This document shows positions 3,970-4,251 of a DNA stretch of 6,951 bases, in pieces (position 1 is the stretch's first letter; every line of letters starts with the position of its first letter). A model generated the notes under the pieces. The model made no database searches, was not told the DNA's origin, and saw nothing but the letters and a program-made list of their open reading frames with translations. This DNA is from Escherichia coli (GTDB taxonomy: Bacteria; Pseudomonadota; Gammaproteobacteria; Enterobacterales; Enterobacteriaceae). The stretch lies in the NCBI RefSeq assembly GCF_003334335.1, contig NZ_QOWQ01000074.1; one strand, written 5' to 3'. A program made the position numbers and the translations under genes.

Positions 3970-4251
3970 ATGTTACAGATAGTCGGCGCGCTGATCCTGC
4001 TGATCGCAGGATTTGCCATTCTTCGCCTTTTGTTCAGAGCATTAATCAGCACGGCTTCTGCGCTGGCAGGGCTCATATTGCTGTGTCTGTTCGGCCCGGC
4101 CTTACTGGCTGGCTATATCACCGAACGCATAACCCGGTTGTTCCATATTCGCTGGCTGGCAGGCGTATTTCTGACGATTGCCGGAATGATCATCAGCTTC
4201 ATGTGGGGACTTGATGGTAAACATATCGCGCTGGTGCAAAATGGCATCTGA
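3970..4251 (+). CDS. Small inner-membrane protein (93 aa, three predicted transmembrane helices); probably the N-terminal remnant of a longer membrane-protein gene truncated by the IS21-family insertion
   Basis: ATG at 3970 is preceded by GGAG (3961-3964, 5-nt spacer). The product MLQIVGALILLIAGFAILRLLF...ASALAGLILLCLFGPALLAGYI...WLAGVFLTIAGMIISFMWGL has three hydrophobic stretches. The TGA stop (4249-4251) lies exactly at the first nucleotides of the IS21 left end. In E. coli CP4-44-type islands the gene after flu is the membrane protein yeeR; that is a contextual guess and I cannot verify the sequence match. Confidence 0.5.
   Translation: MLQIVGALILLIAGFAILRLLFRALISTASALAGLILLCLFGPALLAGYITERITRLFHIRWLAGVFLTIAGMIISFMWGLDGKHIALVQNGI

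Follow-up and report, generated by a model that had tools for sequence, protein, structure and literature searches.

The window, that is the whole stretch of 6,951 nucleotides of Escherichia coli DNA analysed here (contig NZ_QOWQ01000074.1), harbors the 3′ part of agn43 (flu), an IS66-family element, a small open reading frame (ORF) and an IS21-family element, behind which the gene interrupted by the latter resumes (Table 1). The ORF of 93 codons reads from an ATG at 3970 to a TGA at 4249-4251; an in-frame GTG at 3964 represents an alternative start, which would extend the product to 95 aa. A GGAG ribosome-binding site, the native one of yeeR, is located at 3961-3964, 5 nt ahead of the ATG, and Kyte-Doolittle analysis in windows of 19 residues revealed three hydrophobic segments with peaks at residues 4-22, 29-47 and 63-81. 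Both the good ribosome-binding site and the three-helix membrane topology which an earlier note had ascribed to this ORF were thus found again.

Table 1. Location of genes, insertion sequences and junctions in the window (strand and position refer to the window).
Feature	Position	Strand	Remark
agn43 (flu), Ag43 autotransporter gene, 3′ part	1-1088	+	continues beyond the left edge; stop codon at 1086-1088
ISEc49 target-site duplication, left copy, 8 bp GCATTAAC	1172-1179		octamer is single in uninterrupted loci
ISEc49-like IS66-family element, 2753 bp, tnpA/tnpB/tnpC	1180-3932	+	name given by PGAP in a near-identical record
ISEc49 target-site duplication, right copy GCATTAAC	3933-3940		from locus alignment
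Native agn43-yeeR spacer, last 37 bp, including the ribosome-binding site GGAG	3933-3969	+	100% identical to uninterrupted loci
yeeR 5′ fragment	3970-4234	+	codons 1-88 and first base of codon 89; 265 nt
IS21 left end, initial 17 nt, closing the ORF	4235-4251	+	also the start of three independent copies
ISSso4-like IS21-family element, 2638 bp, TG...CA ends	4235-6872	+	from independent copies and PGAP annotation
Extra bases GCGG between IS21 right end and yeeR resumption	6873-6876		imperfect target-duplication remnant
yeeR continuation, codon 89 second base to about codon 113, (E)AHTFDSVKFILTTALAGGLLAVPL	6877-6951	+	continues beyond the right edge; aligns with L003 5303-5377

The segment 3933-4234 (302 nt) is 100% identical to the yeeR locus of strain O26:H11 11368 (L003, 5001-5302) and also to that of the K-12-derived strain HB101 (L002, 5001-5302), in which the ATG is the start of yeeR. 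This identity covers the intergenic end of the spacer and the 5′ end of the gene and ceases exactly at 4234. A megablast comparison of 3880-4260 with complete E. coli genomes gave matches in 2,226 out of 5,426, nearly always limited to query positions 54-355, which correspond to 3933-4234 of the window; the 5′ end of yeeR is present in about 2,220 genomes. The genes under these matches are annotated as 'yeeR' or as 'hypothetical protein'. Since the segment is identical to annotated yeeR 5′ ends and is matched in so many genomes, the ORF is, judged by its sequence, not a chance reading frame.

In its intact form yeeR encodes 838 aa (O26 11368, AF58 and CFT073), and in K-12/HB101 it encodes 510 aa. 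Residues 1-88 of the ORF are residues 1-88 of YeeR, after which the native protein continues with HIALEAHTFDS, whereas the ORF closes with HIALVQNGI and a stop. Past the IS21 element, yeeR is picked up again at 6877, reading AHTFDSVKF, and in full records this 3′ piece measures 2259 nt, with irmA, DUF905 and DUF932 genes behind it. The agn43 part (1-1088) is collinear with the annotated agn43 genes of O26 11368, K-12/HB101 and DETEC-S792, and with both IS elements taken out, the gene order is agn43 - yeeR - irmA. By N-terminal sequence identity (residues 1-88) as well as by its position downstream of agn43 and upstream of irmA, the ORF belongs to yeeR; the full YeeR architecture of about 830-846 aa is not reached, as the native sequence ends after residue 88. 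On grounds of sequence comparison, the ORF is thus a fragment of YeeR and no member protein. Its pseudogene status is already known, for RefSeq (PGAP) lists two pseudogenes here, one at 3970-4233 ('hypothetical protein; incomplete; missing C-terminus') and one for the yeeR piece beyond the IS21 element ('missing N-terminus'). Almost certainly, we are dealing with a pseudogene stub of yeeR, which occupies the middle position in agn43-yeeR-irmA, a phase-variable operon carried on E. coli genomic islands. The earlier note had considered a disrupted longer membrane protein and had proposed a homology search against genes downstream of flu; this possibility is the correct one, and yeeR is that gene, with 838 aa when intact and with its remainder directly after the IS21 element.

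The element upstream of the ORF (1180-3932) displays the features of the IS66 family, namely tnpA-tnpB-tnpC, inverted repeats and an 8-bp duplication. The terminal inverted repeats read GTGTCGTTACGGGGAAGTCAT and GTAAGCTTCCGGGGAACTCAT, and on the uninterrupted locus the alignments of 1-1179 and of 3933-4234 overlap by 8 bp (L003, 5001-5008). For the naming as ISEc49 a record was used which is 99.97% identical to the window (2 mismatches). The right end of ISEc49 lies in the agn43-yeeR spacer, 37 bp ahead of the yeeR ATG with the 8-bp target duplication included, which is close to the roughly 30 bp that had been given as the distance of an IS66 element. The same insertion site is found in isolate AF58 and in CFT073, both with an intact yeeR. 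Concerning the genes of the element, codon 6 of tnpA (1282-1284) is TGA in the window and TGG in the otherwise near-identical DETEC-S792 (W6*), and tnpB, which differs from its CFT073 and AF58 counterparts by a 13-nt indel, is a pseudogene. The reading frame of tnpC (1969/2005-3570) is unbroken in the window but frameshifted in strain G1/2. Just past the tnpC stop a hairpin without U-tract is located at 3602-3651 (-50.3 kcal/mol for 3565-3660, z = -5.2), followed in the right end of ISEc49 by three 16-nt direct repeats (CCCGAGTCAGTACTTC-like) at 3710-3791 with a spacing of 33 nt.

The 3′ junction of the ORF is formed by the second element, whose ends were placed where homology stops, by a search of 4150-6951 against genomes and by a comparison of three copies. 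These independent copies match query positions 86-2724 of the searched segment, corresponding to 4235-6872/3 of the window, and are located in an APEC chromosome, in a nikR/rhsB interval and on a plasmid. All three start with TGCAAAATGGCATCTGAATCG and finish with GAGCGGAATACGCA. The element begins at 4235, inside the ORF and 17 nt before its end, and the earlier claim that the ORF is cut off by an IS21 end is therefore correct. G4234 and the 17 nt of the element are read as V-Q-N-G-I-stop, so that the last five codons and the TGA originate from the IS21 element.

The segment 4235-6872 combines istA and istB with TG...CA termini and repeated terminal motifs, as is characteristic of the IS21 family; motifs containing TTTGGCAT are repeated at both ends, and the ISSso4 family is the name given by PGAP. 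While istB is intact (about 6018-6773), istA is frameshifted (PGAP) and divided into two overlapping ORFs (4356-4961 and 4808-6001), and this copy is therefore probably non-autonomous. At the left end a motif of about 19 nt, CGATCAnnnTTTGGCAT, occurs five times in direct orientation with a spacing of about 23 nt (4254-4364), and inverted copies of it are present at the right end (6803-6867). Multiple terminal repeats are typical of IS21-family elements and are presumed to be transposase-binding sites. A perfect target-site duplication is not seen at this insertion, the left flank being CGCTGG (4229-4234) and the right one GCGG (6873-6876); the other three copies are bordered by perfect duplications of 6-7 bp (GTATCC, GTAACG and AGTGTGG). 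Clean target duplications of 4, 5 or 6 bp were considered as well, each of which needs one or two extra changes. One or two bases have apparently been lost from the right copy of the duplication, and because the flanks form no clean direct repeat, one simple transposition does not quite account for the history of this insertion. Exact excision of 4235-6872 would leave yeeR frameshifted due to the four extra bases left behind.

The junction also decides on the idea that the 93 aa constitute a complete, independent family of small membrane proteins with a native stop, which merely happens to be situated between two IS elements. Such a family would account for the coherent ORF, its ribosome-binding site and its hydrophobic pattern, and nothing else speaks for it, whereas the stop and the rest of the final 17 nt belong to the IS21 element, whose left terminus is invariant, and in thousands of genomes the same sequence runs on into a gene for 838 aa. 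This explanation is refuted by the junction analysis, and we give it practically no chance. The protein searches point in the same direction. An exhaustive phmmer search with YeeR residues 1-200 against 1.84 billion representative proteins yielded just 38 matches. The divergent full-length relatives (24-34% identity) have 827-846 aa and are aligned over the query from residue 1 to about 200; other divergent matches are shorter (161-288 aa), yet their alignments extend beyond residue 88, and the shorter matches of high identity are E. coli fragments (at least 83% identity). Neither among these representatives nor among the short database proteins was a relative found which ends near residue 93. 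Short database proteins with the YeeR N-terminus have differing end points or run into an unrelated CbeA-family or DUF905 domain, and the C-terminus of the ORF occurred in none of the 11 short proteins examined; such scattered ends are what contig boundaries, deletions and IS insertions would be expected to produce. For the 93-aa fragment itself, NCBIfam gave insignificant matches only, far below the cut-off (NhaA, AztB), and PADLOC and PHROGs gave no match. A word-indexed protein search with the 93 aa returned short fragments only, without the full-length YeeR proteins, and we relied on the exhaustive search and on the DNA comparisons.

Just beyond the break at residue 88, the best-conserved N-terminal motif of the relatives, TFDSxKF, contains the invariant residues F93 and K97, and the hydrophobic pattern of YeeR goes on with further helices. 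The ORF is devoid of F93, K97 and everything downstream. Its three helices are half of an N-terminal membrane domain of roughly six helices and no independent unit. A stand-alone small-protein family would be expected to comprise relatives of about this length which stop natively at this position, and no such relatives were detected. The stand-alone small membrane protein, which the earlier note had offered as the second possibility, has to be given up, given that the IS21 element supplies the stop together with the five preceding codons and that the divergent relatives have 827-846 aa; a family of complete 93-aa proteins closed by a stop of their own, which that note had named as the observation contradicting a disrupted gene, was looked for and did not appear.

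The parent protein belongs to a narrowly distributed family of about 830-846 aa (L003, 5038-7554; relatives P0071, P0077, P0079, P0080 and P0083). It comprises an N-terminal multi-helix membrane domain, a Cys-rich CxxC...CxxxC segment, a strongly conserved region (GGQGHGFAAE...NAKNGADR...QTKY...PMQxEVPxDQY...GKVPGVTDP) and a Gly-rich hydrophobic C-terminal part. With full-length YeeR there was no match to NCBIfam HMMs and nothing significant in Pfam, and PDB sequences were hit neither by the single sequence nor by a profile. An AlphaFold2 model of the 838 aa, calculated from an alignment of 9 rows, was of low confidence (pLDDT 62.7, pTM 0.37), and Foldseek assigned to it no PDB match with an E value below 0.27. 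Weak matches to the PADLOC candidate-defence model PDC-M09B were observed for E. coli YeeR (E = 6e-6 and 5e-5) and for one relative (2e-8), with no match in four of the five relatives. They are collinear and comprise, in the central and C-terminal parts of the protein, the GGQGHGFAAE...NAKNGADR region and the Gly-rich C-terminal region, both outside the 93-aa fragment. This possible link is only a lead, and it would concern YeeR and not the fragment.

In order to count the junctions, probes of 80 bases across each of them were compared with the 5,426 complete E. coli genomes. The ISEc49/yeeR junction is present in 65 genomes and the yeeR/IS21 junction in 10, in all ten in identical form. The whole window is present only in the same 10 genomes, with 99.9-100% identity over its length. 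We infer that the ISEc49 insertion is older and more widely inherited and that the IS21 insertion is recent and confined to one rare lineage. In the proposed order of events, ISEc49 would first have inserted between agn43 and yeeR, 37 bp ahead of the ATG, creating the 8-bp duplication; this event is shared by CFT073-type strains, whose yeeR is still intact. Later, in the rare lineage, the ISSso4-like IS21 element would have inserted after the first base of codon 89, whereupon reading would run on into its left end for V-Q-N-G-I and meet the TGA. IS disruption of the agn43-yeeR-irmA cluster is frequent (PMC9431211). In strains of the G1/2 type (L001, 159-3292) the upstream agn43 is N-terminally truncated by an IS4-like IS421 element, and with this truncation the cluster of these strains carries at least three IS insertions.

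Expression of the operon has been studied in several strains. By RT-PCR and 5′ RACE, agn43-yeeR-irmA was identified as one OxyR-repressed transcript (Moriel et al., mBio 2016, PMC4807369), and YeeR was termed uncharacterised by the same authors (PMC4807369). In K-12, the expression of yeeR follows flu and OxyR (PMC8614746). In CFT073 carrying a constitutive promoter on agn43a, IrmA was undetected, for which the authors blame an insertion downstream of agn43a (PMC4807369). In the window, the 2.75-kb ISEc49 parts the stub from the only documented yeeR promoter, the OxyR/Dam-controlled agn43 promoter. Consensus scans of 3400-4500, which are uninformative on expression, revealed no sigma-70-like promoter on the plus strand, a single promoter-like site on the minus strand and no canonical intrinsic terminator, including the interval between tnpC and the ORF. 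Most likely, the stub is silent, poorly expressed or weakly read through, and it would be without function. The intact native ribosome-binding site and start codon count against a silent stub, as does the co-orientation of ISEc49 with the ORF in the absence of a canonical terminator between them; moreover, the polarity experiment in CFT073 involved two nested IS66 elements and not one.

These same features would permit the stub to be transcribed by read-through from tnpABC of ISEc49 or from an unrecognised outward promoter and to yield an active three-helix membrane peptide of 93 aa, for which the second agn43-yeeR-irmA copy of many strains (PMC6480617) might provide a partner. However, the ten genomes out of 5,426, with their identity of 99.9-100% over the window and their identical yeeR/IS21 junction, give no sign of selection, no promoter was found on the plus strand of 3400-4500, a strong hairpin follows tnpC, the inactivated tnpA and tnpB of the ISEc49 copy indicate region-wide decay, the peptide lacks F93, K97 and half of the membrane domain, and an IS at the same site in CFT073 abolished downstream expression (PMC4807369). 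In view of the rarity of the arrangement, the near identity of the ten genomes over the window and the decay of the IS genes tnpA, tnpB and istA, we consider an active read-through peptide very improbable. Less probable again is a new small membrane protein made up of the 88 YeeR residues and VQNGI, which could for example interfere with a second YeeR or perturb the membrane.

For practical purposes a false lead is removed: the ORF at 3970-4251 is no candidate for a small protein and is to be handled as an ordinary pseudogene fragment of yeeR. The agn43-yeeR-irmA cluster has already been published as a frequent IS target, and the ORF provides a further case. In the lineage with the IS21 junction, two IS elements lie between the agn43 promoter and irmA, a vaccine-antigen candidate. 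The fragment sheds no light on the uncharacterised parent YeeR and in itself matters little.

Compared with the known alleles of the locus, the window shares the same ISEc49 at the same site with the agn43a locus of CFT073 (c3655 region). Unlike the window, CFT073 lacks the IS21 insertion, its yeeR is intact, and the right end of its ISEc49 harbors a further, nested IS66-family element. Compared with intact yeeR, the same spacer end, ribosome-binding site and codons 1-88 are found, but the ORF holds just 88 of 838 codons, carries a tail of five residues and a stop from the IS, and has the 3′ 750 codons separate beyond the element. The yeeR of K-12 (510 aa) has the same N-terminus as the ORF and, like it, represents only part of the 838-aa gene; its truncation has been described (PMC6480617, PMC4807369), and the large deletion also took irmA (PMC4807369). 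The K-12 allele keeps about the first 507 residues, whereas in the allele of the window an IS splits the gene at codon 89, with the remainder preserved.
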